Shown here one piece after another: positions 11,724-62,742 of a DNA stretch of 64,000 nucleotides (its first letter is position 1; every line of letters starts with the position of its first letter). Source of the DNA: a virus; IMG/VR virus record IMGVR_UViG_3300029122_000292. One strand, 5' to 3'. Below the pieces are notes generated by a model that saw nothing but the letters and a program-made list of their open reading frames with translations, ran no database searches and was not told the origin of the DNA. Position numbers and translations under genes: made by a program.

Positions 11724-13070
11724 TCAATCGAGTAGATCGGCCAGTTTAGCGGTTTCGCTTCGTTCGCTGATTGGCATATACACAACACCAAACCGGTGCT
11801 GACCTGTGAGACGTTCGATTGCCTTCCGAAGACCGTTATTTGACTCAAATACAACATCATCAATCTGTCGCAGATCGCCATTGAGCCACAGGGCGCTATC
11901 TTCACCAACACGTCCGATTAGTAACTGAATATGCTCCTTAGTAAGATTCTCTGCTTCGCTGCAATAAATAATAGACCGTTTATAGCTTCGACCTCGAATT
12001 GGTCCCAGATGTTCCAGCTTAACCCAACCGTCAATAATGGCACGCTCAAGAGCTACATCGCCGCCAAGAGTATCGGATAGTGGTCCTGCATATGGCATCA
12101 ATTTTTCATTCGCGGTACCGGGTAAAAAACCAATCGATCTAGAATTCTTAACTTCGACAGTGTTCCGGACCCATACGATTCTGTCGTATTTGCCTTTTTC
12201 AATCAAGTCGATAGCGTGATTAACCATCAGGAAGTCCTTGCCGCTACCATACACACCAAGAAGCAGTTTGATTGTAATGTCGTCGTTCTGAAGTAGGTCA
12301 AAGGCAAGCTTTTGCTGAATGTTGAGCGGTTTGATCTTACCTGAGTATGCGGTGTTCAGGTTCTTGTATTTAATAGGTACATAGCGCGAGCCATCCCAGC
12401 GGAGTCCAGCCGTGTTACCATCAGCGTCGGCGTTTGGAATCAATACATAACCGTTTGTTGGTGTATCAACCAAGTTCTTTTGCTCGATATCTTTGGAGTA
12501 GGCCATTGCTAATGCTTCCTCGCCACCCTGATCAATGGGCACCTCTGTCCAGCCGGTGTAGTCATTGTGAGCACCGCCGTGATCAAGAGATAGTTCACAG
12601 GGCAGTTTCATAACCCGCTGCGCAAGATTGAAGCAGCTTAGGTCACTGGTAACAAAACAGAAGGAGTCAACATCAGCGGTCGTCTTGGCTACAAGTTCAT
12701 CTGCGGCCGACTTTTCAAACACTCCTGTCCTGGCATGAATCTTCTCTGCATCTTCTTTCTTTTCAATCAGCTCATTCAGATACCATCGGGCAGCAGCCAT
12801 AATCGTTCCGTCGTTGTTGTCTTTGACTGGGACATCATTCAGGATCGAGAATAGCTGATGGTAATCAATAGATACTACTGTGTACGCTGCTGGATGTTCG
12901 GCGAGCAGGCGAGTGACGGTGCGAGCCTTAGCTTTGGTGGTTTCATCCTTCTTGCCATTAGTTTTAATATCTTCCAGCTCATAGAGAGTGATGTCAGCAA
13001 TTAGAAACTGCTGTGCAAGCAGTGTGTCGGGCGGAAGATCTAGCAGAGCAGAGGTGTCATAGAATTTCAT
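11724..13070 (-). CDS. phoH: PIN-domain / PhoH-like ATPase (PhoH2/YlaK type)
   Basis: Walker A GVYGSGKDFLM plus N-terminal PIN-like domain; domain architecture common in phages. Confidence 0.8.
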   Translation of the reverse strand: MKFYDTSALLDLPPDTLLAQQFLIADITLYELEDIKTNGKKDETTKAKARTVTRLLAEHPAAYTVVSIDYHQLFSILNDVPVKDNNDGTIMAAARWYLNELIEKKEDAEKIHARTGVFEKSAADELVAKTTADVDSFCFVTSDLSCFNLAQRVMKLPCELSLDHGGAHNDYTGWTEVPIDQGGEEALAMAYSKDIEQKNLVDTPTNGYVLIPNADADGNTAGLRWDGSRYVPIKYKNLNTAYSGKIKPLNIQQKLAFDLLQNDDITIKLLLGVYGSGKDFLMVNHAIDLIEKGKYDRIVWVRNTVEVKNSRSIGFLPGTANEKLMPYAGPLSDTLGGDVALERAIIDGWVKLEHLGPIRGRSYKRSIIYCSEAENLTKEHIQLLIGRVGEDSALWLNGDLRQIDDVVFESNNGLRKAIERLTGQHRFGVVYMPISERSETAKLADLLD

Positions 13071-13076
13071 AGTGGA

Positions 13077-14790
13077 TCATTGTCCTCCTTGATAAGGATG
13101 TATTGGATATCGTTTTACGGTTAATATGTTTAAGTACTGTTTGTAAGGGCGAAATTTTGAGCTGCCAGAACATAGCGGGCGAGAAATGCTCTCAGCAGCA
13201 CAAACGGGACTTAAATATATCATGCCTATATTATACACCAAATTTTTGTTATTTGCAAGCGAAATTGCATATATTTTCCGGGGCGATACGTTGTTTTTTA
13301 GCGATGCTGCGCAGGACAGCTGCTTAATGGAGTGTTTAACGGCGTTTATGCGTGAAATGTGCGTTTTTAGTGGCATTTTTAGCGTTTTTAGGGCAAAATT
13401 TAACGTTTTTGATCAAAAAATGAGCGAAATTTGAGCGATCAGGGAAGTGAATTTTGGTCTTTATGGGATACTAGCGGGATGAAATTACGATGATAGGCGC
13501 AATTTATAACAATATAATATGATGTAAATTTGAACGATAATACGTTGTTTACCGGGTGATGCTTCGGGACGTTTTTTGGCTACGCAGCAATGTACTGTGG
13601 TATGGCGGCGTGTGGTGTTGTAGGCGACAGCTGTGCGATCTTGATGGGTGGAAATAGGGGCTGCAGAGCGGTGGTTGACATGGCTGTTGAGATTAAAATT
13701 GGGAAGTGAGGTGCTGCACAGATGGATGTAGAAATGTTGTGAGCTACGCAAGAGCTCGGGAGATTTAGGGCGTGATGGGGAGATAGAACAACTAAGCCCT
13801 TCGGGCTTCGCGCGGGCTGACCCCGGATTTTCAACCTGCCCCCCTCTTGCCCTGTCTATCATCCATTTTTTCTAGGATTCATGCGGCTTTTCGGCTAATA
13901 TGACCTTTTGTTAAAAGGTGGGATTAGGTAGTCCCTGAACACGGAATTTATACCTATTTATATATAGGCGACTTTCCATTCCGTTTTTGTGGGCGGTGGA
14001 TTTTGGTGTTTGTGCGCTTGTTGCAAAAATAAATAGATGGTCTATACTGTAGACACTCCAAGGGGAGCGGGAAACACCGGGAACGGCACCCACACCCCGG
14101 GGAGTAGTCGCACCTTGAAAATTGCAAAGTTTGGATTTTCCCATGTGGGCGGTTTATACCGCGCCGGGTATCCGGTCAAGGTTTATGCCTTGCCATTTTC
14201 AAAACATGGGTTTCCTATCTGAACAATTAGTGCGCCCAAACCCCGATGGCCAAACATTACCGGCATAATTCCCAAGAACGTGGGAGAAGTGCGGGGGGGG
14301 GCGGTGTACCTTGAAAACTGAACAAAAGGCAGAACCTAAGATAACACCACGGGGACTGTTATGCGCAAGCATAGTTTTGTAGAAAACGCCAAGGCCAGAG
14401 CTGGCGATAATAGATACAATACCAAAGATAGTACGGTTGTTTGATGGCGTAGAACCGCCTAGAGGAGAAAAAAGCTCTTGTACCACCCCTACTATAAGCT
14501 AGAATAGCGGGCAAGGGTGCAAGCAAAAGAACACCATTAGTTCCAGATGGGCAAAGTGCGCCAAGACTAACTAACGCACGATGGACAGCACACGGGCTGT
14601 ATAAGTCCGTGCCATAATGGAACACGGGCAACAGTGCAATGGCCTAGAGAAAAGCACAACCCCAAAAGCATATAAGCTGCAAGTGTAGCTTTACATAAAA
14701 GAGACGGTCATCGGTATGCACTCTCCAAAAGCGTACCGTACCAGAGCGCTAAACAATCCGGTTTAGTGCAAGTTTTTATAAGATGAGAGG
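13077..14790. other. 1.7 kb non-coding, locally GC-rich, structured region between divergent gene blocks; candidate origin/regulatory hub and/or ncRNA locus
   Basis: Only short mutually overlapping ORFs; phased (A)GCGTTTTTA(G) repeats at 13360-13430; GNRA-type hairpins such as AGCCCTTCGGGCT; G-runs. Confidence 0.4.
14017..14044 (+). promoter_or_regulatory. sigma70-like promoter TTGCAA-N16-TATACT
   Basis: Read directly from sequence inside the non-coding region. Confidence 0.35.
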
Positions 14791-20359: not shown

Positions 20360-20757
20360 TCGTCAGCGAGATCTACGAAACCATGGCGGGCGACCTCTAT
20401 GGTGTGGTTCTGAATGAGGATATCAAAATCATTCGGGTTGTCAAAATCAACGACCGCGAGCTTACCCCTGATTTTTTCCGGCGAGCAAGAATGGGATTCC
20501 TTACTGAGCATTCGTATGACCAGTTGCCCAAAGAAGAGATGTGGCGGTGTATTGAATCAAATTGCCGTCTGGTGGCGACCATCACAAACTGCCACGGATT
20601 TATCGTTCATGCAGACCACGATATGACCCGCAGCAGCCGTAAGATGTTTGGCAAGAGAGCGCGAATGAATTACGACCGCAGATACAATGGAGGCGATTAT
20701 GGTGGAACAATTCACAGTCAAGCCAACTACTGCCGCAAAGCAAACCAGTTCGCCTAA
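20356..20757 (+). CDS. hypothetical protein (133 aa)
   Basis: ORF track; ATGA overlap. Confidence 0.5.
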   Translation: MIVSEIYETMAGDLYGVVLNEDIKIIRVVKINDRELTPDFFRRARMGFLTEHSYDQLPKEEMWRCIESNCRLVATITNCHGFIVHADHDMTRSSRKMFGKRARMNYDRRYNGGDYGGTIHSQANYCRKANQFA

Positions 20758-25471: not shown

Positions 25472-25825
25472 ACTTCTTTAAGTGTTACTTAATTCACCCC
25501 ATACAGTTGTAAAATCTTCAAAAACCTGCGCTAACTCACTTGACTATAACATCATACCGTTGTATAATAGAAGCTGAAGAGCTATATATTTTGATCAGTT
25601 TGGGCGAATTGGTCAATATGCAACGAAATGTATATTTATTCAAATGTTCAATCATTCAATTCACAATTCAAAAAAATCAGAAACGAAATAGCGAATGGGT
25701 TTGGGCGAAGTCCAATCGCGAAGCGCCTCTGATTTGAAGCCGTGGCGAGCGATGAGCGAGTGGCGGCGAAAAAAATTTGGAAAGAGGATGAATTGAGATA
25801 ATGATGATGAGTTGTTAGTGATGTA

Positions 25826-26865: not shown

Positions 26866-27289
26866 TTACGCAAAGGTAGGATGAGGTATCCCGGGGCGGA
26901 GGGGCCTGCTTTCAGCCTCTGAACGAGTCGACGGAGTCAGACCCAGAACCACTGAACGCCGAGCAAGGCGATTTGGTTGCAAAACGCCCGAAACTCAACA
27001 AAGTAGCTCATCAAAGTTCGACAGAAGCTCATCAATTGAACTCAATCAACGCGAGTTGAACGGGTACTGATCAACTTCGGGACCTTTTTAAGATCAATCT
27101 TGAGAGCTTAAAAGAGCAACAACATCATTTAGATCTCGATGAATAATAATGCATAAATATGCAGAAAGGACGAATAATATACAATGATTTATGCATAGCT
27201 AATTGAGGCGCTGCCTAACGCCTATTATAAATAAGGTAGTCGACAAAAATGACACAAAAAATATATTTAAGTTCTGTTTATAATGACAA

Positions 27290-27318: not shown

Positions 27319-27363
27319 CATTTCACAAACAGGACTTAAATATACATAAGGGAGGAAAAACAA

Positions 27364-28863
27364 GTGAATGAGAACGAAAACGTAGCGATGCAGCTGGCGA
27401 CCACAAGGAAGTTCGGCGAGCTTGAGATTCAGGTCTACGAGAATCCGGCGGTCGGTCACAGCAGGGTACAGGATGATTTCTGGATGACACGGGAGCAGAT
27501 TGGCACTGCATTGGAATACGATAAGCCGAATGAACGTATCGGCAAGATTCATCAACGTAACGCAGATCGTCTTGACCCACTTTCAACTTTGGTCAAAATG
27601 ACCAAGGTTGAAGGCAATAGAACGGTAAAACGTGAAATTATTTGTTACAATCTGCGTGGTGTTATGGAGATCTGCCGCTACAGCACCCAGCCTAAAGCGA
27701 ACGCCTTCATTGATTTCTGCTGGGATGTGATGGTCGCTCTGATGCAGGGCGAAACCGTATCTCTGGACAGAGGGAAGATGAGTGATGTAGAGTTGCGGCG
27801 ACAGGCACGCTTTGATGTTATGACTCAAGGCATTGAAGAACTTCGCCAGTCTCAGATTCAGCTTTGTTCTCAGATGGCCAAGATGGAAGAAAAGCGCCGG
27901 CAGGACAGGGAAGCTCTTGAGAATTTGATCCATTTCACAAAAGCAGACCTTGAGAAGGCAGAACGCATTGTGAGCAAGAACGACATCATTATCTCCACAA
28001 TTGAACAGATCAAGAAGCAGCTGGCAACGACTATCCAGCAGCCAACTTATCAGAATGGTTCTTATACTCCGCGTAAGACTTACATTCAGCCAGCAGAAAC
28101 TTCGTGGAAACATGACGTTAAGGAGATGGTGAGAAAAATCTCCCACATTGAGGGTGTGCCCCAAAAAGACATCTTTAACGGCATGTACAAAACCTTCGAG
28201 AAAGAGTTCGGATGGTCGGTATACGAAGAACGAAAGCTCTACGCGAAGAAAAAGGATATTTCGGATATTTATTCGATCCCGCTCATTGATATTGTGGAGA
28301 TGGCCAACGATAACATTCGGTCAAGTTTCTATTGCCGACTCAAGGATCGCTATGAGAACGATCTTTTTGATCCCGAGGAAGCAAAGAGGCAGCCGCATGT
28401 GAGCAAGCGAAATCCGCCGATGATCCCTGCCAGCATGATTCCTACACGGCATAAGTTTGAAGATTTTCCGAGTGTGTTGTCTCCTGAAAATCCGGGCGGC
28501 AATGATATCAAGGTTGTAGCAGAGGTTCAGGCAGTTGAAGTTGAAGCTCCAACGGTTGAAACGCCGGTGGCTGAAGCTCTGGTGGTCAAAGAACCGAAAA
28601 AGAAATACTACTACAAGCCGAGCATTACACTTCCGATCGTTGAACCCATTGCAAAAAAGCTGGGTGATAAGACGATTGGGTATTGGGTTACCTATGCAAA
28701 GATCTATGACACGATCGGCGTTGTCAAGATGGATCGTATGCGCAAGGCGTATGTACGTTCTCATAATAAGCCGCCCAAGGCTACTCCTGATATTTTCCAA
28801 CATTCTGATAAGAATATGAAAGTGTTTAAGGAAGCCGCAAAGATTGTGGCGGCAGCTATCTAA
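27364..28863 (+). CDS. Bro-N / KilA-C family antirepressor-like protein (499 aa)
   Basis: N-terminal Bro-N-like segment (FGELEIQVYEN...DFWMTREQIGTALEY...); GTG start after AGGGAGGAAAAACAA. Confidence 0.65.
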   Translation: MNENENVAMQLATTRKFGELEIQVYENPAVGHSRVQDDFWMTREQIGTALEYDKPNERIGKIHQRNADRLDPLSTLVKMTKVEGNRTVKREIICYNLRGVMEICRYSTQPKANAFIDFCWDVMVALMQGETVSLDRGKMSDVELRRQARFDVMTQGIEELRQSQIQLCSQMAKMEEKRRQDREALENLIHFTKADLEKAERIVSKNDIIISTIEQIKKQLATTIQQPTYQNGSYTPRKTYIQPAETSWKHDVKEMVRKISHIEGVPQKDIFNGMYKTFEKEFGWSVYEERKLYAKKKDISDIYSIPLIDIVEMANDNIRSSFYCRLKDRYENDLFDPEEAKRQPHVSKRNPPMIPASMIPTRHKFEDFPSVLSPENPGGNDIKVVAEVQAVEVEAPTVETPVAEALVVKEPKKKYYYKPSITLPIVEPIAKKLGDKTIGYWVTYAKIYDTIGVVKMDRMRKAYVRSHNKPPKATPDIFQHSDKNMKVFKEAAKIVAAAI

Positions 28864-31552: not shown

Positions 31553-32464
31553 ATGAAGAAGTTCAAAAAGATTTTCGTGGTTTCGTGTGCAATCGTGATG
31601 GCGTTGACCTTTACGGGGTGTACCAAGAAAGAGGTGTATACAATCGAACCTCATGAAACTGCATTTCTGATTTCACTCTCTGAGGGCGGTGGGAAACAGG
31701 CGTCCTTTGAGAGTGAGGCAATGCTCGCTGAAGCAAAGGTGGCAGCCAAACAGGTGTACATTACTTACTCGAAGCGACATCTGTCGCCGACTGACATCAT
31801 TGGTACTTGGGTACCGGATAACATGTTGGTTGTCGTCAATAGAACTCCTGTTACTCGTGAATGGTCCGAGGGCAAGGACAGTGGCACCAGCACTGTCAAC
31901 CAGTCCATCTCTGCCGAAAGCAAGGAGTCTATTGGCTTCTCTGTCGGTATGAACTGCTCTGCTCAGATCTACACTGAAAACGATGCAGTCAAGTTCCTGT
32001 ATTCCTACAACAACAAACAGCTCTCCGAGATTATGGATACTGAAATCCGTGCTCGTGTTGAAGCTGACTTTGTTGAAATGTGCGCCAAGTACACCATGAA
32101 TGAGATCCTTGAGAAGAAGGCCGAGATCATGGAGTATGTCCGCAAGGATGTGACTGAGTATTTTGCAGAACGCGGTATCACGATTACTGTCCTTGGTATG
32201 AAGGATGGCATTGAGTACGACGATGCGTCTGTTCAGGCTGCTATTAACAAGTCCTTTGTGGCTGAGCGCAATGATGAGGCGCAGGAGATTGAGAATCAGA
32301 CTAAGATTTCCAAGGCGAACGCAGAAGCCGAGGCGAATAAAATCATCTCTGAGTCTCTGACTGACCGGCTGATTCAGCAGCAGATGTATGAAAAGTGGGA
32401 TGGTAAGCTTCCTACTTATGTCGGCGGCGATGCCAGCATTCCTGTACTGAACGATATGAAGTAA
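31553..32464 (+). CDS. SPFH (band-7/prohibitin-like) domain lipoprotein (303 aa)
   Basis: Lipobox LTFTGC; Ala/Glu-rich coiled C-terminus typical of the SPFH family; GC3-rich. Confidence 0.6.
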   Translation: MKKFKKIFVVSCAIVMALTFTGCTKKEVYTIEPHETAFLISLSEGGGKQASFESEAMLAEAKVAAKQVYITYSKRHLSPTDIIGTWVPDNMLVVVNRTPVTREWSEGKDSGTSTVNQSISAESKESIGFSVGMNCSAQIYTENDAVKFLYSYNNKQLSEIMDTEIRARVEADFVEMCAKYTMNEILEKKAEIMEYVRKDVTEYFAERGITITVLGMKDGIEYDDASVQAAINKSFVAERNDEAQEIENQTKISKANAEAEANKIISESLTDRLIQQQMYEKWDGKLPTYVGGDASIPVLNDMK

Positions 32465-35095: not shown

Positions 35096-35147
35096 TTTTA
35101 TTTTTTGGTCACACAAACATAACTTAAATATATAAAGGAGCGAAGAA

Positions 35148-38651: not shown

Positions 38652-39326
38652 ATGAATCTGAGTAAGCTTGAAATGGTATTCAACCCCGATGATATCAGCG
38701 GCCAGATCCACATTATTGGTTGTGGTTCGGTTGGCTCTACTGTGGCGGAACTTCTTGCACGGTATGGTCTGAAGAATTTCACGCTGTGGGATATGGACGA
38801 GGTTGAAAGCAAGAATATCGTCAACCAGATGTTCTTCGCCAACAATATTGAAGCTCCAAAGGTCGAGGCGGTTCGCGATATTATCTGTGCCATCAATCCT
38901 GATGCCAAAGATGAAATTGTTCTGAAGCCGAATGGTTGGCAGGGTGAGATGATTCGCGGTTATGTATTCCTCGCGGTCGACAATATCGAAATTCGCAAGC
39001 AATTCATGGAGGCGAACAAGTACAATCCGAATATCAAGGGTGTGTTTGATGTCCGCACCGGGTTCCATGATGCACAGTGCTGGGCAGCAGATTGGAGTAA
39101 GGAAAAAGACCGAGAGAATTTATGGAACTCTATGAATTTCTCTCATGAAGATGCACAGGCTGGCACTCCGGTTTCTGCATGTGGCATCGTTCAAGGTCTC
39201 GCCCCGACTGTTCGTTTCGTGTGTTGTTTGGCGGTTACGAACTTTATCAATTTCGCGACTAATATCGCACCTTTGAAGAAAATGATCGTTGCAAATCCGT
39301 ACACTTTTAACGTTACGGCTGCATAA
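38652..39326 (+). CDS. ThiF/MoeB-family E1-like adenylyltransferase (224 aa)
   Basis: Rossmann motif IIGCGSVGSTVAELLARYGL followed by LWDMDEVESKNIVNQ, as in the E1/MoeB/ThiF nucleotide-binding site. Confidence 0.65.
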   Translation: MNLSKLEMVFNPDDISGQIHIIGCGSVGSTVAELLARYGLKNFTLWDMDEVESKNIVNQMFFANNIEAPKVEAVRDIICAINPDAKDEIVLKPNGWQGEMIRGYVFLAVDNIEIRKQFMEANKYNPNIKGVFDVRTGFHDAQCWAADWSKEKDRENLWNSMNFSHEDAQAGTPVSACGIVQGLAPTVRFVCCLAVTNFINFATNIAPLKKMIVANPYTFNVTAA

Positions 39327-39620: not shown

Positions 39621-40856
39621 ATGTACGTTACTTATTGGAATCCGCCGAGAACAAGGCAGATTACGTTTGATGAAATCCTTAGTGGAGTCGTTGACGTGAA
39701 CCAGTTGAAATATGCTGGCGATGAAACTTCTACTCGAACTGTACAGCGTAATGGGTTGAATGATCGTCTCGTAGCAATTACAAACGTTACCAATATGATT
39801 GCACGGCTCGCGGAATTCAATCAGAAATACGCTCGTCTTGAAGCAGTACGTGACCTGTCGACGTATTACTATCACTTTGAAATTCCCAAGAAGACTGGTG
39901 GCGTTCGTCCAATTGATGCACCGAACAATGAACTGAGCGATGCGTTGGTTGAGTTGCGGACGCTGTTAAAAAGTTTCATGATTGCTGATTATCACACGGC
40001 AGCACACGCATATATCAATGGGCGCGGCACTCTGAGTGCAATTAAAAAGCATCAGGCGGGACACAGATATACAGTAAAAGATCGTGAGACTGGGAAAGAA
40101 AAGATCGTCACCTATGAAAACAACTGGGCTGTCAAGTTTGACTTTCATGGATTCTTCCCGAGCTCCACTCCTGAGTTTATCTACAGTATGTTCAGAAAGA
40201 TTTATCCGTTTTCTCTCATTATGAAGGATCGAAATGGATACAATCAGCTGACTAAAGCGATGCGCCTGTGCTTCTTGAACGGCGGTCTTCCGCAGGGAAC
40301 GCCAATCAGTCCGTGGATCACGAACGTTATGATGATCCCGTTTGATTATATGTTAAACAAGAAGCTTTCTTACAAATATACCATGAAAGACGGCATTTCT
40401 CGCACTTTTACATACACCAGATATGCAGACGATATCACCATCAGCTGCTATTTGAGTTTTGACCCGATGGAAATGCAGGATATTATCAAAGAGACGTTGG
40501 ACGCAATCAATGCTCCGTTTACTTTGAATGAAGAAAAAACGCATTATGGTAATCGGCATTCGAGCGAAAACTGGATGCTCGGTCTGATGTGGAACGCCAA
40601 TAACGATATCACAGTCGGATGGCGCAATTTTAAGGACTTCAAGAAGATGGCATCTAATTACATCATCTGCAAGAAAGAAGGGAAAACGTGGGACCTTGAA
40701 GACTTGCAGCAGTTTAATGGCAGGCTGAATTACTACCGTATGGTAGAAAAAGAATCGGTTGACACGGTGATTTCTCGGTACAACGAAAAGTATCGTGTTG
40801 ATATGATGGCAATGCTCAAAGCTGACTTAAAACCAAAAGAAGGAGTTGTTTTCTAA
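39621..40856 (+). CDS. reverse transcriptase, retron/group-II-like clade (411 aa)
   Basis: RT motifs IPKKTGGVRPI, FDFHGFFPS, GLPQGTPISP, YTRYADDITIS; N-terminal similarity to retron RTs. Confidence 0.85.
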   Translation: MYVTYWNPPRTRQITFDEILSGVVDVNQLKYAGDETSTRTVQRNGLNDRLVAITNVTNMIARLAEFNQKYARLEAVRDLSTYYYHFEIPKKTGGVRPIDAPNNELSDALVELRTLLKSFMIADYHTAAHAYINGRGTLSAIKKHQAGHRYTVKDRETGKEKIVTYENNWAVKFDFHGFFPSSTPEFIYSMFRKIYPFSLIMKDRNGYNQLTKAMRLCFLNGGLPQGTPISPWITNVMMIPFDYMLNKKLSYKYTMKDGISRTFTYTRYADDITISCYLSFDPMEMQDIIKETLDAINAPFTLNEEKTHYGNRHSSENWMLGLMWNANNDITVGWRNFKDFKKMASNYIICKKEGKTWDLEDLQQFNGRLNYYRMVEKESVDTVISRYNEKYRVDMMAMLKADLKPKEGVVF

Positions 40857-41817: not shown

Positions 41818-42633
41818 ATGGCAGAAACCGCAAAGAAAGTGGCACAAAAAACCATTCTTTTCCCAGTTGAAGATCAGCCTGCAAAACTCGTCGTTACAGA
41901 GGACGATATTGAACGAATTATTCAGCAGGCAGTTAAAAGTGCCACTGCAACGAAAAAAGCACGGAAACCTCGTCGGACGGACAGTCTTTATCTCAAGGAT
42001 GGGCGTAGAAAGCCAACCCCGGCAGATCCTATCAAGTCAAAGGAAGATTTTAAGAAAATTGTTGATTATCTTGGATCAAATGGCACTGAAGAAATTGCGC
42101 TCAGGAACAAAACACTATTCATTCTCGGCTGTTCAATTGGTGTTCGATGCGGCGATTTGTTGAAGCTTAAAACGGCTGATGTTTATTATGAGAACGCTCA
42201 TGTAAAAGATCATGTTGAGCTGATCGAACAGAAGACCGGCAAGCGAAACGTGTGTAAGATTTCTCATATGGCAAAAGAAGCTTTAAGAGAATATTATCAG
42301 GCAATTAGTTTTCGAATTGACCGCGACACGCTTCTTTTTCAGAGCAAGAAAGGTGGACAGCTTAACGTTAGATCAGTGAGCAACCTTTTGAAGAAGGCTG
42401 GTAAGGCGTGTGGTTTGAATATTGAGTTATCTACTCACACTATGCGTAAAACTTATGCTATGGCCGCGTTACAGAGTGCAGAAGGTACAGTTGATGAAGC
42501 GAACATCGTGAGTATTCTGCAAAACAAATTTAACCACAGTAATCAGCGTATTACGATGAGATATATCAAAATGGATCAAGAAAAACTTGATGAAGTCTCT
42601 GAGAATGTTTCCGACTGGTTTGAAGGAGAATAA
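41818..42633 (+). CDS. tyrosine recombinase / phage-integrase-family catalytic domain protein (271 aa)
   Basis: Arg I (GVRCGDLLKL), HxxR (THTMRKTYA) and catalytic Tyr (ITMRYIKMD). Confidence 0.7.
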   Translation: MAETAKKVAQKTILFPVEDQPAKLVVTEDDIERIIQQAVKSATATKKARKPRRTDSLYLKDGRRKPTPADPIKSKEDFKKIVDYLGSNGTEEIALRNKTLFILGCSIGVRCGDLLKLKTADVYYENAHVKDHVELIEQKTGKRNVCKISHMAKEALREYYQAISFRIDRDTLLFQSKKGGQLNVRSVSNLLKKAGKACGLNIELSTHTMRKTYAMAALQSAEGTVDEANIVSILQNKFNHSNQRITMRYIKMDQEKLDEVSENVSDWFEGE

Positions 42634-46255: not shown

Positions 46256-47359
46256 ATGAAAGTTGTTGAAAGCGCAAGCAATCTGTTCCTGTATGGCGAC
46301 GATATGAAGGCGTATGACAAGATCCCGGCGGGTACCTATGATATCCACTGTTCTGAGATGACCGGTTTCTATCTGTCCCGCCGCCCTGATATGGTCATCA
46401 ACGAAAAGGTGTATGGTGTCCAGAGTGGCAAGGTTGCCAAAGTGCTGAATTCGTTCAAAGCGTTCAATCGTAACTTGGGTGTCATCCTCAGCGGCAATAA
46501 AGGCATCGGCAAATCTCTGACCGCTAAGATGATTGCAATCGAGGCTATTAAGCAGGGCTATCCTGTCATTCTGGCTAACCGCTATATCGGCGGTATCGCA
46601 AATTTCATCGAATCCATCAATCAGGAAGTTATGATCCTGTTTGACGAGTTTGATAAGACCTTCAAGTCCCGGGACAATGAAAATCCGCAGGATACGATGC
46701 TGAGTCTGTTCGATGGCACCAGCGCGGGCAAAAAGCTCTTCGTTGTCACCTGTAACCAGCTCAATGGCCTGAACGATTATCTGGTCAACCGTCCCGGCCG
46801 CTTCCACTATCACTTCCGCTTCGATTATCCGGGCGCTGACGAGGTAGAAACCTATCTCAAAGATAAGCTCGAAGAGAAGTATTACGATCAGATCCCAGCT
46901 GTGGTCGATTTTTCTGGCAAGATCGATCTGAACTACGACTGCCTGCGGTCTATTGCTTTTGAACTGAATCTTGGCACTCCATTCGCAGAAGCCATCAAGG
47001 ATCTGAATATCATCAATATGAACGAGACCAGCTACAAGATCACTGTTTTATTCAAGGATGGTTACCGTACGTCCTGCACCAAGCGTTTTGATATGTTCAA
47101 TGGTGCACAGCGTATCTATTTTGAGATCAAACTGAAGGATGGCTTCTGGCCTGATTGCTACATCAACACCGAGGATATCCAGTATAACCCCGCCAACGGC
47201 GAGCAGTTCATTGATGGCAAGAAGGTTGATGTGGTCAATCCGTATTCTAAGAACGTAGAGGATGAAAAAGATCGCTATGAAGCCTTTGAAAAGGATAATG
47301 GCGTGGCCAAGGTCATCATTTCTCGTGCTCGTGAAAGAGACATTCACTACATGGTCTAA
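46256..47359 (+). CDS. classic AAA-family ATPase (367 aa)
   Basis: Walker A GNKGIGKS, Walker B ILFDEFD, sensor-2-like NRPGRFHYHF. Confidence 0.75.
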   Translation: MKVVESASNLFLYGDDMKAYDKIPAGTYDIHCSEMTGFYLSRRPDMVINEKVYGVQSGKVAKVLNSFKAFNRNLGVILSGNKGIGKSLTAKMIAIEAIKQGYPVILANRYIGGIANFIESINQEVMILFDEFDKTFKSRDNENPQDTMLSLFDGTSAGKKLFVVTCNQLNGLNDYLVNRPGRFHYHFRFDYPGADEVETYLKDKLEEKYYDQIPAVVDFSGKIDLNYDCLRSIAFELNLGTPFAEAIKDLNIINMNETSYKITVLFKDGYRTSCTKRFDMFNGAQRIYFEIKLKDGFWPDCYINTEDIQYNPANGEQFIDGKKVDVVNPYSKNVEDEKDRYEAFEKDNGVAKVIISRARERDIHYMV

Positions 47360-48695: not shown

Positions 48696-50174
48696 ATGAT
48701 CAACATTAACCCAATGCTGCTGTGCGATTTCTATAAAACAACGCACAGTAAGCAGTTCCCGGCTGGCACTACTAAGCTGGTTAGTTATTTCACTCCGCGC
48801 ATGAGCCGTCTGGATGGCGTGGATGAAGTCGTTGTGTTTGGTGTTCAGGCGTTCTGCAAGAATTATCTGCAGAATTATTTTAAACGTTGGTTTTTTGATT
48901 TCCCAAAGGAGTGGGTTGTCTCAAATTATCAGCGTGTCCTGGACGCAACCATTGGCAAGGACGCTTATGATATCGATAAGATTGCTGCCCTGCATGACCT
49001 GGGCTATCTTCCTGTCGAGATCAAGGCGCTGCCAGAAGGCACTCGTTGCCCCATCCATGTGCCGTTCCTTGAGATGAGCAATACACATCCTGATTTCGCA
49101 TGGGTTCCGCAGTTCCTCGAATCTTTTATGAGTTCTGAGCTGTGGCATCCGATGATTTCTGCAACGGTCGGAACTCTGTATCGCGATATCGTGGACAAGT
49201 ATTACGATGAAACCGTGGATGATGGCGTACCGCATGCTCGTGCTCTAGGCGATTTCAGTTTCCGTGGTCAGGAGTGTATGCAGTCGGCAGTTAAGTCAAG
49301 CGCCGGTTGGTGTCTGAGTTTTCTGAATACGGCTACTGTCCCTGCGATTCCGTATCTGGAAGAAATGTATCGCTGCAATTGTGAAGAAGAGCCTGTTGCG
49401 TTTGGCGCTGTTAGCACCGAGCATAGTGTGATGTGTTCTAACTTCGCTGTCGATGGTGACGAGATTACTTTCATCCGCCGGGCACTGACTGAGCTGTATC
49501 CCAATATGAGCTTCAGCATGGTATCTGATTCCTACGACTATTGGAATCTAGTCGATAATATCCTGCCGCAGCTCAAGGATGAAATTATGGCGCACAACGG
49601 TACGATGCTGATTCGTGGCGACTCTGGTGATCCGGTCGAAATCGTCACGCAGACCGTCTATCATCTGTGGAATATCTTCGGTGGCACGGTCAACAGCAAG
49701 GGTTATAAGGTGCTCGACCCTCATGTAAAGGCTCTGTATGGCGATTCCATCACTGTGCAGCGCTGTGAAAAGATTTATGCCGAACTCAAAGCACATGGTT
49801 TCGCCTGCAACAATGTCAGTCTTGGCGTTGGTTCGTTCTCCATGCAGTGCATCGAGCAGAATGGTCAGTTGAAGCCGTTTACTCGCGATACTTTTGGCAT
49901 GGCAGTTAAGGCAACTTATGGCGTTGTCAATGGCAAGGAGATTCAGATCTTCAAAGATCCCAAGACTGATACCGACCACTTCAAGAAGAGTCTGAAGGGC
50001 ATGTGTTATGTCACTAAGGATGATTCTGGAAAGCTGGTTTGTACTGATGGTCTGATGGATCATGCTGCTCATTCGGATGGCAATCTGTTGCAGCCCGTAT
50101 TCCGTAATGGCGTGATGGTCAAGGAATACAGTTTGAAGGAAGTTCGCGACCGGCTGTGGGAAGGAAAGTTCTAA
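48696..50174 (+). CDS. nadV: nicotinamide phosphoribosyltransferase family (NadV/NAMPT, or the NAMPT-like Namat)
   Basis: Extensive similarity to NAMPT: LLCDFYKTTHSKQFP, VSDSYDYWN, IRGDSGDP, NSKGYKVLDPHVKALYGDSI. Confidence 0.8.
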   Translation: MININPMLLCDFYKTTHSKQFPAGTTKLVSYFTPRMSRLDGVDEVVVFGVQAFCKNYLQNYFKRWFFDFPKEWVVSNYQRVLDATIGKDAYDIDKIAALHDLGYLPVEIKALPEGTRCPIHVPFLEMSNTHPDFAWVPQFLESFMSSELWHPMISATVGTLYRDIVDKYYDETVDDGVPHARALGDFSFRGQECMQSAVKSSAGWCLSFLNTATVPAIPYLEEMYRCNCEEEPVAFGAVSTEHSVMCSNFAVDGDEITFIRRALTELYPNMSFSMVSDSYDYWNLVDNILPQLKDEIMAHNGTMLIRGDSGDPVEIVTQTVYHLWNIFGGTVNSKGYKVLDPHVKALYGDSITVQRCEKIYAELKAHGFACNNVSLGVGSFSMQCIEQNGQLKPFTRDTFGMAVKATYGVVNGKEIQIFKDPKTDTDHFKKSLKGMCYVTKDDSGKLVCTDGLMDHAAHSDGNLLQPVFRNGVMVKEYSLKEVRDRLWEGKF

Positions 50175-50886: not shown

Positions 50887-51651
50887 ATGCGTAAGTATGA
50901 ATTTGATGCAGCAAAGACAAAGGATGAAATCATTACGTGGATTCGGAATTATTTCCGAAAGAATGGCCCTGATTGCAATGCTGTGATTGGTATTTCTGGC
51001 GGCAAGGATTCAAGTATCGTCGCTGCTCTGTGCTGCGAGGCGCTTGGCAATGGCCGCGTGATCGGAGTTCTGATGCCGCAGGGTGTACAGGAAGATATCG
51101 ATGTGGCGCGGGAACTGGTTGCTCATCTAGGGATCAAGTCCTTCGAGATCAATATCGCCGAGACTGTGAATACGCTGTTAGCCAATGGACGGGCAGCGGG
51201 GCTGTGTGATTCAAAGCAGGCTCGTGTAAATCTGCCGGCACGAATCCGTATGGCAACCCTGTTCATGGTGTCTCAGAGTACGAATGGGCGAGTGGCTAAC
51301 ACTTGCAACGCTTCAGAAAATTTCGTCGGGTGGCAAACTGTGGGAGGGGATGGATTTGGCCAGTTCAGTCCTCTTAGTAAGCTGACTGTTACTGAGGTAA
51401 AATCCGTTGGTCGTGAGTTGGGTCTTCCTGAAAAGTTCATCGAGAAAGCACCTGCAGATGGGCTGACTGGCAAAACCGATGAAGATAATTTCGGGTTTAC
51501 TTATGAATTCCTTGACAAATATATCCGCACTGGTGAGTTTGGTGGCGATACCGCAACTGCAGCTAAGATCGATCGGATGCATGAGGCGAATTTGTTTAAG
51601 GATTTGCCGATGCCTACGTATGACCCATCCTTGTTTAATTGGTGGGGCTAA
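50887..51651 (+). CDS. nadE: NH3-dependent NAD+ synthetase
   Basis: PP-loop GISGGKDSS and overall NadE-like layout. Confidence 0.75.
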   Translation: MRKYEFDAAKTKDEIITWIRNYFRKNGPDCNAVIGISGGKDSSIVAALCCEALGNGRVIGVLMPQGVQEDIDVARELVAHLGIKSFEINIAETVNTLLANGRAAGLCDSKQARVNLPARIRMATLFMVSQSTNGRVANTCNASENFVGWQTVGGDGFGQFSPLSKLTVTEVKSVGRELGLPEKFIEKAPADGLTGKTDEDNFGFTYEFLDKYIRTGEFGGDTATAAKIDRMHEANLFKDLPMPTYDPSLFNWWG

Positions 51652-57022: not shown

Positions 57023-57826
57023 ATGACACGAGAAGAATTACAACGTATCATTGATAGCGAACCCTATGATTTTCTACGTACTGATCCTCACCTTGGCAAG
57101 CATTTGATGTTTCTGACCATTGGCGGCAGCCATGCTTATGGAACGAATGTAGCAGGATCAGATGTTGATATTCGCGGTGTCGCTTTGAACTCCAAAGAGG
57201 ATCTACTCGGGTTGGGTGAGTTTGAACATCGTGTAGATACGATGACGGATACAACGGTATTTAGCTTCAACAAGGCTGCGAAGTTATTGTGTAGCAGGAA
57301 TCCAAACATGCTGGAACAGTTTGGTAATCCAGACGAGCTTGTTATCACTTACAGCCCGACCGCAAAGCTGTTGTTCGATAATAAGAATTTGTTTCTATCA
57401 AAGCGTGTGATTTATTCATTTGGTGGATTTGCAGGGAAGTTAATTAAAGAAGCAGATGCTAAATGGCGTGCGTACCTGTATGAAGTTGAAGTATCTGGCG
57501 TGAATCCAAATGTTAAACCGTATATTCCATGTGGAGAAAAACGTTTCAATAAGATTGTAATGAATGTGATTCGCTTATATCATATGTTGTTTGACATCTT
57601 AGAAAAAGGTGAGATCAACACTTATCGTGGGGCTGAGCACGATATTTTGATGCAGATTCGAAACGGGGACTACGACTACGAAGAGTTGCGCAAGCATACG
57701 ATTCCTATTTATGAGGCAAGACTGCAGGCAGACAAGAAAGAAACAGATCTGCCTGACCGAGTTGATATGAAACAGGTCAATGAGTTAGCCGTGACTATCA
57801 ATGAGCAGGCGCTAAAGGTGGTGTAA
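57023..57826 (+). CDS. polymerase-beta-superfamily nucleotidyltransferase (267 aa)
   Basis: GGSHAYGTNVAGSDVDIRGV fits the GS...DxD nucleotidyltransferase signature. Confidence 0.6.
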   Translation: MTREELQRIIDSEPYDFLRTDPHLGKHLMFLTIGGSHAYGTNVAGSDVDIRGVALNSKEDLLGLGEFEHRVDTMTDTTVFSFNKAAKLLCSRNPNMLEQFGNPDELVITYSPTAKLLFDNKNLFLSKRVIYSFGGFAGKLIKEADAKWRAYLYEVEVSGVNPNVKPYIPCGEKRFNKIVMNVIRLYHMLFDILEKGEINTYRGAEHDILMQIRNGDYDYEELRKHTIPIYEARLQADKKETDLPDRVDMKQVNELAVTINEQALKVV

Positions 57827-59336: not shown

Positions 59337-59735
59337 ATGAGTGGAGCTATTTCGTTTTTCCTTGGGTTGTTCGGTCTTGGTGCGGCTGGTGCAGTCAGCG
59401 CGGGACAGAACGCAAAAATCAAGAAGGCAGATTATCAGTATGGCGAAGAGCATGGCCTTCATGGCACCTCTGAGGTTCTGCAAATGCGGGAGCGAGTGCG
59501 TAAAGAATGGTGGAGCATCTGCGGCAAAACCTACAACGCATGTGAGCGGCCTGCATCGAGTTACGGCGACCTCAGCAGAACCCCGTGGTGCTATCTGAAA
59601 AAGCGCTGGTTCATTGATCATCTGAACAAAAAGGGCATTCCTTATGATGATCTGGTCGTGGATGATGTTACCGGCGTTACCTTCTACGAGAGCCAGAAAA
59701 GAACGTCCCAAGCCTATATGAGAAAGCTGCGGTAA
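59337..59735 (+). CDS. membrane-anchored protein (132 aa)
   Basis: N-terminal hydrophobic ISFFLGLFGLGAAGAV. Confidence 0.5.
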   Translation: MSGAISFFLGLFGLGAAGAVSAGQNAKIKKADYQYGEEHGLHGTSEVLQMRERVRKEWWSICGKTYNACERPASSYGDLSRTPWCYLKKRWFIDHLNKKGIPYDDLVVDDVTGVTFYESQKRTSQAYMRKLR

Positions 59736-59750
59736 TAGGAGAATAATTAT

Positions 59751-59969
59751 ATGAAAGCTTATGACGCATTAACTGCTGTACTTAGAACCGTTGAAGCGAA
59801 TCATGCCAAATTACGCGAAGAACCTGATTCTGACGGCGATACCCATGATAAATGGGAAGCGGAAGAAGATGTTCTGTGCGAATTGGAGGAGGCGCTTGAA
59901 GAAGCTATTGATCGATACGAAGAAGCGATGGAAGTGCGAAAGAGTTTGCGAGTTGCAATATTGAAATAA
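59751..59969 (+). CDS. small acidic helical protein (72 aa)
   Basis: ORF track. Confidence 0.45.
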   Translation: MKAYDALTAVLRTVEANHAKLREEPDSDGDTHDKWEAEEDVLCELEEALEEAIDRYEEAMEVRKSLRVAILK

Positions 59970-60082
59970 CAACCAAGAAGTTTAAATTGGGGGTTGAATA
60001 TTAAGACATAATATGGTAGAATAACAACTGAAAATAGTAATGCCGCAGAATTCAATGTGAATTTCGGTTGTATTTGGAGGTC

Positions 60083-60406
60083 ATGATGATAAAAACTTTT
60101 ACTGCGGAGGAGTTTTTTAGCTACATCCGGTCTTTTGAAAAAATGTATGTATGGTGCGGTTCGGATGGAAACAGTGGATTGTTTATTCGGACAAATCCAA
60201 AACGCGCTGCTATCATGAAAAGAAAAAATGGGTATGAGATCTCTTGCATGATCGCTCAGAAAGGAGCGATGTTTTGCGAGGAGGGCGGGCTGATACTTTA
60301 CGGCAATGAATTTCAGTGTAACATTGAAACAGATTGCGCTAGATATGAGGTGGCTGTAAAATCTGATAAGATGGCTGGACTGATGAAAATCATTTTACAA
60401 ACATAA
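60083..60406 (+). CDS. hypothetical protein (107 aa)
   Basis: ATG after GGAGG. Confidence 0.5.
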   Translation: MMIKTFTAEEFFSYIRSFEKMYVWCGSDGNSGLFIRTNPKRAAIMKRKNGYEISCMIAQKGAMFCEEGGLILYGNEFQCNIETDCARYEVAVKSDKMAGLMKIILQT

Positions 60407-60431
60407 CTTAAAAATAAAATGAATAAAAACG

Positions 60432-60460
60432 CTTGACAAGTCAGGTTTGAGGTGATATAA
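60432..60460 (+). promoter_or_regulatory. near-consensus sigma70 promoter TTGACA-N17-TATAAT with TGn extended -10
   Basis: Read from sequence; 43 nt upstream of the MazF-like gene. Confidence 0.6.
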
Positions 60461-60502
60461 TGGTACCATAGAGAACAAGCCATAGACAAGGAGGTCATAA
60501 AT

Positions 60503-60919
60503 ATGTTCGTGGCTGGAAAGAGCATCCCGAAGATTGGCGAAATCCGTTTTGGATACGCCAGTGACGATGAAAGTCGACTAAGTACTCATAAATACGTCGG
60601 CGTCCATCCGTATCTCGTTGTGTCAAACAATACTTACAATAAGACTTCTGGACAGTGCGAAGTTATTCCGTTTACCACAAAGCGGATCGGCAAGTACAAT
60701 CCAGTTCACGTTGAGTATAAGGCGGGCGAGGTAAGTGGGTTAATCAAAGATTCCACTCTAATCATTGAGGGAAGAGATACGCTGCGAAATTGCCAGCTTA
60801 GTGAACCGGTGGGCGAGTTCACGGAAGGAAACTGGGAGCGCGTTGTGGAAGCAATGAAAGTTCAGTGCCCTTTCCTAAGAAAAGAATCAGCAGATAAACC
60901 TGTTTTAACAATCGCATAA
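60503..60919 (+). CDS. MazF/PemK/Kid-family toxin-like protein (mRNA interferase fold)
   Basis: HPYLVVSNNTYNKTSGQCEVIPFTTK aligns with MazF RPAVVLSPFMYNNKTGMCLCVPCTTQ; N-terminal P.IGEI also conserved. Confidence 0.7.
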   Translation: MFVAGKSIPKIGEIRFGYASDDESRLSTHKYVGVHPYLVVSNNTYNKTSGQCEVIPFTTKRIGKYNPVHVEYKAGEVSGLIKDSTLIIEGRDTLRNCQLSEPVGEFTEGNWERVVEAMKVQCPFLRKESADKPVLTIA

Positions 60920-60994
60920 ATTATTGTCTATTGAAAAAACTCCTTACATAGTGTAAAATATTATAAAAACACCCTCACTATGTAAGGAGTGAAT

Positions 60995-62059
60995 ATGATG
61001 GACAGCACGATGTACAACTACGATCGCAAAGCTGCTTTCATGGAGTTTTATATCAACGGTGGAAGAAACGAAGACGCCGCTAGGTACAGACAAAGAGATG
61101 CAGTAACTGCGTTGAACAAGGTTGCAATTGTTGAAACAAAATACAATAAAGATTTCTGTGAATTTAAAAGCGGCTCAACAGAGATGAATGATCTTTGTGT
61201 TTTGTGGCTTAACAATTTGGCGGATACAAGAAGAGTAAGAATGACATCTATTTTAAGAGCCTATCTTAAATGGTGTTATCAAAACGATTATATCAACGCC
61301 GAACAGTATTATAGTCATGATATGACTAGTACAGTATCTAGAAGCTCAAACAAAACCGACGTCTGGTCTTCGATGTTGATTAAACAGATGGAGGTTGCAA
61401 GCGAAAACGAAACAAACTCTCTAGACTCTGACTTTATTTTTGAAGATAAAGAGTCCTTTATAGAATATGTTTCGACTGTGCTTGGTCATGAAAAATATAC
61501 GATGCCGGCAGCTTTAATGATTTTACTTTACTATCAGTTTGAATCTACAGCTGTAACGAAAATATTAAAGACAGAAGTAGATGCCGCCGGGCATACAGTG
61601 CAAAACGTTTATATCGATGACGAAACAGCATTTAATATTATTTATCGTGCAAAAGTCATTGACAGTTATAGCACAACGTTTGAAAGAAATAATAAAAATT
61701 ATGATCGAATAGAGTATTATGCTGATTCTCCGTACTTGTTAAGAAATACTTCAAGAGGAAGAAAAAAAGAACAAGAAACCGATCAGCAAGTTCCATATTC
61801 GTTCGTAAAAAAGGTTATGGAAGTGGAACGAAAAGCGAACAAAGAACTTCCAGAAGATTCTCCGTATAAAAATGTTATTATAAAGGGCGCAACAATTTCA
61901 AAATTAAAACTGTTCCACGAAATGAGAGTAGACGAAAAAAAGTACGGATTAGAATTTGTAAAAGAAAACATAATAGATGGAAAGTATGGTAATTATACAG
62001 TTCCGCAAACTGTATATAGAGAGTATTGTTTGATGGCGTCCAAAGCACGAAAAATTTAA
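60995..62059 (+). CDS. hypothetical protein (354 aa)
   Basis: ATG after AAGGAGTG. Confidence 0.55.
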   Translation: MMDSTMYNYDRKAAFMEFYINGGRNEDAARYRQRDAVTALNKVAIVETKYNKDFCEFKSGSTEMNDLCVLWLNNLADTRRVRMTSILRAYLKWCYQNDYINAEQYYSHDMTSTVSRSSNKTDVWSSMLIKQMEVASENETNSLDSDFIFEDKESFIEYVSTVLGHEKYTMPAALMILLYYQFESTAVTKILKTEVDAAGHTVQNVYIDDETAFNIIYRAKVIDSYSTTFERNNKNYDRIEYYADSPYLLRNTSRGRKKEQETDQQVPYSFVKKVMEVERKANKELPEDSPYKNVIIKGATISKLKLFHEMRVDEKKYGLEFVKENIIDGKYGNYTVPQTVYREYCLMASKARKI

Positions 62060-62068
62060 AAAGATATT

Positions 62069-62092
62069 GAGCCGAAAGGCTCTTTATCTTTC
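62069..62092 (+). terminator. rho-independent terminator GAGCCGAAAGGCTC + TTTATCTTT
   Basis: Read from sequence. Confidence 0.5.
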
Positions 62093-62139
62093 GACGCACA
62101 AACATGACTTAAATATACTTTCTGCAAGGAGGTGAGAGA

Positions 62140-62742
62140 ATGAAGAGGATGATTGCGGCGTGTATCTCAACGATTATGGTTGCGTGCGTGACTATTTCGG
62201 CTGCAGCTGATGATCCAATTGGGACATACGACAGTTGGAAGCCGGATTTAAAAGAATACACTTCACAAGTCTGCGATGAATATGGAGTCGATTATAGTTT
62301 GGCTCTTGGCGTGATATATAATGAAAGCCGATTTAAAAGCGGACTGACTCATATGAACTCAAACGGAACAACCGATTATGGGCTGATGCAAGTCAATGAG
62401 GTTAATTTCAAATATTTGAACAGGACGCTTGGCATTACATCAATGAATCAGTTGTTGGATGATAGGGTTGGAATTAGATGTGGAGTTCACTTACTCGCGT
62501 ATCATAAACACGCAACAGGGAACGATTCCGCAGCTCTCCTACGATATCAGGTGGGAGAGGGTACATATAAAAAGTATATAAAACGTGGTAAGTACACAAA
62601 TGATACTCATGGTCGGGTATGGCAGTACAGAAACATCTATTATGAATATCTGAATCAACACAATGAATCAAAATTAAATGGCTTCACGAGGAAAGATCCG
62701 ATTGAATCCATTTTAAATACGTGGGCAGAAATGCTCACTTGA
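62140..62742 (+). CDS. secreted lytic transglycosylase (SLT domain), candidate endolysin
   Basis: Signal peptide; catalytic ES and GLMQV motifs (VIYNESRFKSG...DYGLMQVNE). Confidence 0.7.
   Translation: MKRMIAACISTIMVACVTISAAADDPIGTYDSWKPDLKEYTSQVCDEYGVDYSLALGVIYNESRFKSGLTHMNSNGTTDYGLMQVNEVNFKYLNRTLGITSMNQLLDDRVGIRCGVHLLAYHKHATGNDSAALLRYQVGEGTYKKYIKRGKYTNDTHGRVWQYRNIYYEYLNQHNESKLNGFTRKDPIESILNTWAEMLT

Follow-up and report, generated by a model that had tools for sequence, protein, structure and literature searches.

What is a MazF/PemK-family gene doing in a viral genome when no recognizable antitoxin stands beside it? We addressed this question for a 64,000-nucleotide (nt) stretch of IMG/VR virus record IMGVR_UViG_3300029122_000292 (hereafter the window), where a reading of the letters alone (the original prediction) had described an orphan MazF/PemK-like toxin gene driven by a near-consensus extended -10 promoter, and had considered its product a possible host shut-off tool or decoy. 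Our analysis places the gene between a small upstream open reading frame (ORF) and the gene of a probable phage repressor, with the Shine-Dalgarno (SD) sequence of the latter masked by a conserved RNA hairpin that carries an invariant UACAUA hexamer. We tentatively read the protein as a phage MazF-family endoribonuclease acting in a lysis-lysogeny (immunity) module, where it would favour lysogeny, rather than as one half of a classical toxin-antitoxin (TA) pair, a reading that we hold to be plausible although somewhat short of probable.

Assignment of the 138-amino-acid (aa) product to the MazF/PemK family was borne out by three resources (feature coordinates are collected in Table 1). The protein matches PF02452 (PemK_toxin) at 35.6 bits against a gathering cut-off of 23.1 bits (Pfam; E=1.2e-8, residues 28-119, 92/109 profile positions) and PHROG 1936, 'MazF-like growth inhibitor' (E=2.9e-10), and a PDB search returned as its closest solved structures the UACAU-type Firmicute MazF proteins of S. 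aureus and B. subtilis (E~2e-4) and not that of E. coli. The NCBIfam MazF equivalog NF007386 scores far below its cut-off (19.1 versus 120 bits), and the clade is small and distinct, a search of 1.84 billion proteins giving 8 representative clusters at E<=1e-30; MazF-like relatives form 79 clusters at 90% identity. The ORF follows an SD sequence, AAGGAGG (60488-60494), and a promoter that is the sole 12/12 sigma-70 match on both strands of the 64 kb, the runner-up being an 11/12 match at 25540, so that its earlier description as the strongest such match in the window holds. All 13 independent lineages that we compared have a strong extended -10 promoter ahead of the gene (9-12/12 matches; TG in 12/13).

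At all loci of the 13 lineages the order is an ORF of about 105 aa, the MazF-like gene and a gene for an MrpR-like protein of 332-382 aa, with a gene for an SLT transglycosylase usually next, and where neighbouring genes have been reshuffled, as in L011, which lacks the SLT gene, the trio stays intact. A search for MrpR-like genes lacking an upstream MazF-like gene, made with a single peptide pattern and for that reason uninformative, gave 14 loci, all on contigs already known to carry the latter. In the window the third gene encodes 354 aa, and its product, which had been suggested as a possible antitoxin, instead has a two-domain tyrosine-recombinase fold. Its AF2 model (predicted local distance difference test score, pLDDT, of 77) retrieves exclusively Cre/Tre or Tn1549 Int among the top 30 Foldseek matches in the PDB (best E 1e-4, prob 1.0) and phage integrase-fold proteins from BFVD, while the Phage_integrase Pfam family does not match the sequence and PDB sequence searches with either neighbour of the MazF-like gene gave nothing meaningful; the 354-aa protein was thus resolved by the structure route alone. 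MrpR_N_CB (PF22822) scores 26.8 bits on it, against a cut-off of 27, and is recorded for the homologs P0081, P0082 and P0084-87. Alignment of the family profile to SroF of phage phi3T with hhalign gave E 3.4e-5 at a probability of 72% over 137 columns, the likeness at sequence level being confined to the N-terminal ~140 residues. Y344 is invariant in the family, and a by-eye alignment suggests that Arg-I is missing. MrpR and SroF are themselves integrase-fold proteins with Cre as nearest structural relative and with recombinase function lost; since integrase fold, Cre relationship and SroF similarity all match this type, the 354-aa protein is most probably the master repressor of the phage. 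Between lineages, the MazF-like proteins are 56-69% identical, the MrpR-like proteins down to 20-30% (17-30% within the family) and the upstream proteins at most 25%. Such divergence of the repressor is as expected of immunity repressors, and the alignments point to a much stronger constraint on the MazF-like protein.

The physical link between the MazF-like and repressor genes is a 75-nt spacer. A perfect inverted repeat forms a hairpin (-28.7 kcal/mol, z -7.1 relative to shuffles) whose left arm holds an anti-SD, CUCCUU, followed by UACAUA (60945-60950) and whose right arm holds the SD of the repressor gene, AAGGAG (60984-60989). Diverged lineages present the same architecture with loops of 13-50 nt, and anti-SD and SD change together (CUCCUU/AAGGAG, CCCACCU/AGGUGGG, CCUGUCU/AGGCAGG). 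As loop lengths vary and MAFFT misaligned the right arms, the structure was tested by per-sequence folds and by permutation of cognate and non-cognate duplexes; cognate arms pair at -8.5 versus -5.2 kcal/mol for non-cognate ones, with 0/20000 permutations as good. The hairpin is a co-evolving RNA structure that masks the repressor SD, and Rfam has no family for it or for anything else in 59700-62200. Within the spacer, TACATA is the only invariant block and lies immediately 3' of the anti-SD; 88/88 loci have it no more than 200 nt from the MazF-like stop codon, and of the loci that encode distinct MazF-like proteins, 40/40 have it within 100 nt. The left-arm UACAUA remains constant as its right-arm partner drifts (A or G opposite U4, and in some lineages positions without a partner), and the contexts of all 56 TACATA occurrences in the window are unrelated, which speaks against a longer repeat of which it would form part. 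The MazF enzymes of B. subtilis, Listeria and S. aureus have U^ACAUA as their strict six-base site, and cleavage at this point would detach the anti-SD from the mRNA. In the papers examined we found described neither a phage MazF fixed beside an SroF-like repressor nor an SD-masking leader with a MazF site.

The same spacer contains an internal promoter for the repressor gene, and the TTGCAA/TTGAAA-17-TAAAAT/TACAAT/TATACT arrangement recurs in diverged spacers. The anti-SD and UACAUA fall between its two hexamers, and its -10 sits in the hairpin loop. Transcripts from this promoter would lack the left arm, so that only read-through from the strong MazF-like promoter is expected to have a masked SD. 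This geometry also speaks for a very unlikely alternative, in which the linkage is inherited synteny only, the MazF-like gene is an unrelated moron, and TACATA acts at the DNA level, for example as a feature of the promoter spacer or as the target of a conserved DNA-binding factor: the hexamer lies 3-7 nt upstream of the internal -10, and as all loci belong to one phage family their linkage may reflect descent. Yet the distance from UACAUA to the -10 is not fixed (3 nt in most lineages, 7 nt in L013), whereas the place of the hexamer in the RNA stem is kept, in L013 as elsewhere; the drift of its partner is G-U-compatible and, together with the compensatory changes, indicates RNA; the UACAUA bias described next is specific to the sense strand and genome-wide; and the trio survives although its neighbours are reshuffled in some lineages.

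Across the 80 ORFs of the window (44 kb), sense UACAUA occurs 20 times against 8.3+-2.6 in synonymous shuffles (0/200; z 4.7), a 2.4-fold enrichment in coding sequence that ranks 4/3769 among hexamers, with the reverse complement at z~0. UACAU is wholly absent from the MazF-like and MrpR-like ORFs of the window, and the module ORFs of the 13 lineages contain 2 UACAUA in 19.5 kb, where the density of their flanks would predict 12.9 (P 2.5e-4), and show no depletion of the reverse complement. Tested alone against shuffles, the MrpR-like ORFs have 10 UACAU versus 18.7 (P 0.007-0.03). In phi3T and SPβ, MazF sites are likewise overrepresented in the transcripts, with the sro repressor operon spared; our phi3T control reproduced this published pattern, the overall frequency being 1 site per 863 nt and the 4.2-kb sro operon having just 1. 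The invariant UACAUA of the adjoining leader and the genome-wide bias are the only indirect backing for the putative endoribonuclease activity of the phage protein. Both could in principle serve the MazF of the host, with the phage protein having another specificity or role, for example host mRNA shut-off or, as with T4 RegB, the processing of early transcripts during lytic growth. Bacillota MazFs share UACAUA specificity, phi3T has this bias too, along with a UACAUA in the leader of sro, although it lacks a MazF gene of its own, and a strong early-type promoter fits a takeover function, under which PHROG files such proteins. We nevertheless consider this unlikely, as it explains neither the constant joining of the gene to the repressor through the switch nor a conservation far above that of its neighbours, and a general shut-off RNase would hit the UACAUA-rich mRNAs of the phage only if it shared that specificity. 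The two roles first proposed for the gene, host shut-off and decoy, both leave aside this context, namely a fixed partnership with a repressor gene via a conserved RNA switch bearing a MazF-type site, which indicates control of lysis and lysogeny.

A further repeated element suggests how the module might be controlled. The 20-mer ACAAACAKRACTTAAAWATA occurs in 7 copies in the window against 0.05 expected. Two of these bracket the module, one located 17 nt upstream of the -35 hexamer of the MazF-like promoter and the other after the module terminator, where it overlaps a promoter-like site of the SLT transglycosylase gene (62140-62742); the remaining five are intergenic. Most copies are located just ahead of an SD sequence or behind a terminator hairpin. 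The lineage of the window (L004) has the box and 12 others lack it, and L011, L016, L024 and L034 have a different, lineage-specific repeat at the equivalent two positions. These patterns suggest that the box is a candidate SPBRE-like operator of the MrpR-like repressor: lineage-specific boxes that co-vary as SPBRE operators do, next to a SroF/MrpR-type protein, would make this a bracketed immunity module in which the RNase promoter is perhaps under repressor control. The resemblance to MrpR (YopR) and SroF thereby extends from the CB and CAT domains, with Cre as the nearest solved relative, to a long asymmetric, lineage-specific candidate box at distant intergenic sites; it differs in that identity is 17-30% even within the present family. 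Two other assignments were rejected. A reading of the box as a promoter for the conserved YonO-like polymerase fails, since 12 other lineages do not have it, and the A-tract AAAAATAAAAT upstream of the -35, tried as an SroF-type operator core, occurs 7 times versus 5.3 expected, which is chance.

Taken together, these elements can be arranged in the following model. Upon infection, host RNA polymerase would initiate at the MazF-like promoter and produce a long mazF-like/mrpR-like transcript, from which the MazF-like protein would be made and on which repressor translation would be blocked, its SD being locked in the anti-SD hairpin. A UACAUA-specific RNase, most simply the MazF-like protein itself and possibly the host MazF with it, would then cut U^ACAUA 3' of the anti-SD and free the SD. 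The same cleavage would degrade UACAUA-rich lytic transcripts and spare the module ORFs, which lack the site; repressor would build up and presumably tip the balance to lysogeny. In the lysogen, repressor would be supplied by the internal promoter, on transcripts without the anti-SD arm, and may bind the dispersed 20-nt boxes, including the one beside the MazF-like promoter. There is precedent in phi3T, where MazF activity promotes lysogeny and the sro operon is spared; in phi3T and SPβ the host MazF is activated via binding of SroA/SroB to MazE, and is blocked by AimX/YosL.

Any such model depends on a functional enzyme, and here the residue alignment of the window protein with BsMazF and 24 family members gives a mixed answer. 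The segment HPYLVVSNNTYNKTSGQCEVIPFTT, on which the original prediction had based a catalytic-loop alignment, does align to the β2-β3/catalytic-Thr region. The catalytic Thr (T48 in BsMazF) corresponds to T58, which is invariant in 25/25 family members; the equivalents of P26 (P36) and N36 (N46) are invariant too, and the most conserved segments hold the invariant residues H29, Y31, G33, P36, N46, T58, P67-H69 and S84-L86. With the BsMazF and S. aureus enzymes, whose strict UACAUA site is the invariant element of the phage leader, the protein shares the PF02452 fold, this Thr, the Pro and Asn (Pro26/36, Asn36/46) and the P-x-H-V and D-S-x-hhh-E motifs. Relative to BsMazF, the β1-β2 loop is remodelled, with H29-x-Y31 in place of S-E-Q, and there is a C-terminal tail; relative to chromosomal MazF genes, the phage gene comes without MazE, with a strong promoter of its own and in linkage to a repressor gene. 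The putative RNA-binding and catalytic loops are the best-conserved part of the family, which argues against a decaying pseudo-enzyme, and we infer that the protein is an active RNase despite the substitution discussed below, with UACAUA as its presumed target.

Several observations weigh against this reading, and the first of them concern the active site. The general acid/base R25 of BsMazF (R29 in EcMazF), mutation of which abolishes MazF activity, is His35 in the window protein and a His in the majority of the clade. An exhaustive profile search gave 123 wider relatives, of which 114 have Arg at this site, 6 have His and 2 have Lys, and even within the clade the basal members P0053, P0063, P0067, P0070, P0071 and P0073 retain Arg. 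G18 and E20 are replaced by T28 and K30 and are not kept, H29 and Y31 being invariant instead; G18, E20, P26 and N36 count as conserved substrate-binding residues of UACA-type MazFs. The loss of catalytic residues that the original prediction had named as a reason to doubt its assignment has therefore partly materialized, Arg having become His and G18/E20 having changed, with Thr58 kept. As for specificity, the protein is only ~25% identical to BsMazF. On the RNA side, UACAUA is buried in a stable stem, whereas MazF cuts single-stranded RNA, and its location within the internal-promoter spacer means that it may be constrained at the DNA level; the depletion of TACATA in MrpR-like ORFs alone is marginal relative to shuffles (1 versus 4.4, P~0.06-0.08). 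On the regulatory side, the box at 60397 lies clear of the core promoter. No AimX/YosL inhibitor or arbitrium AimR/AimP was found among the ORFs scanned in the 64-kb window of the ~145-kb genome, and tblastn together with a search for the motif M-x3-Y-x-E-M in six frames of the 64 kb returned only noise for AimX/MazE mimics.

The catalytic substitution has a further possible explanation, to which we give little credence: the protein could be a catalytically impaired decoy that titrates host MazE and so frees MazF, or that forms inactive heterodimers with host MazF as a means of anti-defence. The His at the catalytic Arg position and the changed G18/E20 are what such a decoy would show, and phi3T encodes its MazE-binding, MazF-activating proteins (SroA/SroB) in the repressor operon. 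[quoted passage not shown]

Could the locus nevertheless be a TA system? The upstream gene, which had been described as unlike MazE/PemI, does remain without a relative in Pfam, PHROG, PADLOC, NCBIfam and the PDB (single-sequence and profile searches for the last), and in the ORF list there is no plausible canonical antitoxin ORF overlapping the toxin gene. The locus is not a canonical type II MazEF/PemIK module, no antitoxin of known fold being adjacent. Structure prediction of both neighbours, proposed earlier as a route to an antitoxin fold, gave the integrase fold for one and was uninformative for the other, the AF2 model of the 106-aa protein from 6 close sequences having a pLDDT of 35, unusable for a fold search. 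The claim that the upstream gene lies in a separate transcription unit was half right: the 96-nt gap between the 106-aa gene and the toxin gene houses the 12/12 promoter of the latter, but no terminator was found between the upstream, MazF-like and repressor genes. An upstream ORF of 88-121 aa ends 58-122 nt ahead of the MazF-like start in 13/13 lineages, and most of its products carry at the N-terminus the weakly conserved motif T-[FY]-T-A-x-E-[FL]..S-[FY]. If the MazF-like protein has a non-canonical inhibitor encoded next to it, the upstream protein is the sole candidate. A non-canonical type II TA system for addiction or abortive infection, with this protein as a novel antitoxin in the service of lysogen protection or prophage stabilisation, would account for the constant presence and spacing of the ORF and for its weakly conserved N-terminal helix motif; antitoxin-first order is typical of MazEF, and a promoter of their own is common among prophage morons. 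The chances of this seem to us small. The protein is unlike any antitoxin family or fold, and PADLOC defence models match no cassette protein. The toxin promoter is far stronger than the promoter-like site of the upstream gene, and the toxin gene comes only behind the 58-122-nt gap, the opposite of the co-translated type II design with antitoxin in excess; across lineages with toxin identities of 57-69%, those of the upstream proteins are at most 25%; and the invariant UACAUA hairpin and the fixed repressor linkage would go unexplained. Two genes upstream of the MazF-like gene, an acidic helical 72-aa protein is encoded at 59751-59969 (+) and kept in L006 and L008. It has the length of YopT, the SPβ antirepressor (Sar), which mimics DNA via acidic residues; a PDB search showed no similarity to support a YopT/Sar-like antirepressor.

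How the proposed immunity module relates to known systems depends on the identity of the phage. By its gene content, the window belongs to an SPβ-like temperate phage, ~140-150 kb in size, whose hosts are gut Clostridia. It encodes a YonO-type RNA polymerase that is 22% identical to those of SPβ-like Bacillus phages, 39.5% to that of Thomasclavelia phages and 23-25% to those of Enterocloster phages, with Clostridium phages also having homologs. MazF-like relatives lie on 80 viral contigs, mostly of 135-151 kb, and on only two contigs of metagenome-assembled genomes (MAGs), from Lachnospiraceae and Peptococcaceae; in L013 the module is followed by AAA_24 (YorG-like) and YorH homologs, as in phi3T/SPβ. 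Likeness to the phi3T/SPβ circuit therefore covers the YonO-type polymerase, genome size, YorG/YorH, an integrase-fold master repressor (here a presumed one) and the enrichment and sparing of UACAUA. The differences are that the RNase comes from the host there, whereas here a MazF homolog is phage-encoded, immediately upstream of the repressor gene, and that the hosts are Bacillus there and gut Clostridia here (Lachnospiraceae and Peptococcaceae MAGs). One may go further and propose that SPβ-like gut phages have internalised the MazF step of an arbitrium-type circuit, their own His-variant RNase cutting the leader UACAUA in a self-contained lysogeny timer that needs no antitoxin, as its promoter would be repressor-controlled; this fuller version is speculative, and we regard it as rather doubtful. 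A UACAUA is also present in the sro operon leader of phi3T (L098, KY030782) at 20588-20593, just past the -10 and ~32 nt before the phi3T_92 start; it is unmentioned in the literature examined, and may be a counterpart of the SD-masking leader site.

Phage MazF-like annotations and the link between MazF and lysogeny in SPβ-like Bacillus phages are already known. The former include the Ca. Heliusvirales gut phages (such as Blautia phage NatCom_27009), whose orphan MazF-like proteins of PHROG 1936 are 34-40% identical to the present one and have no annotated antitoxin; their genes differ in being part of the replication module, packed after a ~160-aa gene, with neither an MrpR-like neighbour nor a TACATA past the stop codon. 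Two such loci, L001 4031-4396 and L002 3938-4294, come from gut Lachnospiraceae phages, and their role is probably different. T4 RegB is a phage sequence-specific endoribonuclease of toxin fold that has no antitoxin and acts early, at short motifs in or close to SD regions, to reprogramme expression. Its fold is RelE/YoeB-like, and its cuts, at GGAG, inactivate the early mRNAs of a virulent phage. The present protein has a MazF fold and belongs to a temperate phage, in which the predicted cleavage would turn on repressor translation. What the locus suggests is that abundant ~145-kb phages infecting human-gut Clostridia follow phi3T/SPβ logic but have taken the RNase into their own genome and tied it to the repressor by a cis-acting RNA switch. 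If so, 'orphan' phage MazF genes, now annotated as growth inhibitors alone, would gain a physiological role; there would be a natural case of a toxin-family RNase activating translation, and a His-variant MazF for enzymology; and the compact promoter-RNase-leader-repressor module could be tested with reporters. The 20-nt repeats also provide candidate operator boxes for an uncharacterised family of integrase-fold repressors.

Table 1. Positions of the module elements and related features in the window
Feature	Position (nt)	Strand	Basis and remarks
RdRP-type (RNA-dependent RNA polymerase-type) single-subunit RNA polymerase, YonO-type, 849 aa	4496-7045	-	Homology
Copies of the 20-nt box	13125-13144(-), 13200-13219(+), 27262-27281(-), 27325-27344(+), 35113-35132(+), 60397-60416(+), 62098-62117(+)		Repeat count
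Conserved upstream partner gene, 106-107 aa	60083/60086..60406	+	ORF; unmatched in family databases and the PDB
Sigma-70/sigma-A promoter of the MazF-like gene, extended -10 TG	60433..60461	+	12/12 match, kept in 13/13 lineages; TTGACA 60433-60438, 17 nt, TG 60453-60454, TATAAT 60456-60461
MazF/PemK-fold protein, 138 aa	60503..60919	+	Pfam, PHROG, PDB; His35 for catalytic Arg, Thr58/Pro36/Asn46 invariant
Internal promoter of the repressor gene, TTGAAA-17-TAAAAT	60931..60959	+	10/12 sigma-70 match
SD-sequestering hairpin	60939..60990	+	Perfect 15-nt inverted repeat 60939-60953 / 60976-60990, loop 22 nt
SroF/MrpR-like integrase-fold protein, 354 aa, presumed master repressor	60995..62059	+	Pfam, AF2/Foldseek, hhalign
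Terminator-like hairpin and T-tract, module end	62069..62090	+	Hairpin with T-tract

Other genes of the window add to the picture of the phage. An AntA/KilAC antirepressor (10512-11267, -), a PhoH-like ATPase (11724-13070, -) and a Bro-N protein (27364-28863, +) are encoded, and the genes of the latter two are directly preceded by copies of the 20-nt box. A nicotinamide/nicotinate phosphoribosyltransferase (48696-50174) and an NAD synthase (50887-51651, +) form an NAD-salvage pair of the kind that phages use against NAD-depleting defences. A retron-type reverse transcriptase (39621-40856, +; PADLOC RT_II-A E 2e-37, Pfam RVT_1) is flanked by genes for a ThiF-like protein (38652-39326) and a XerC/D-like tyrosine recombinase (41818-42633), possibly a phage retron or defence island. 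Finally, an AAA/nSTAND3-like NTPase (46256-47359, +) with a weak PADLOC IetA match, an SPFH/Band-7 protein (31553-32464, +) and an RlaP-type nucleotidyltransferase (57023-57826, +) are possible defence or anti-defence accessory genes.

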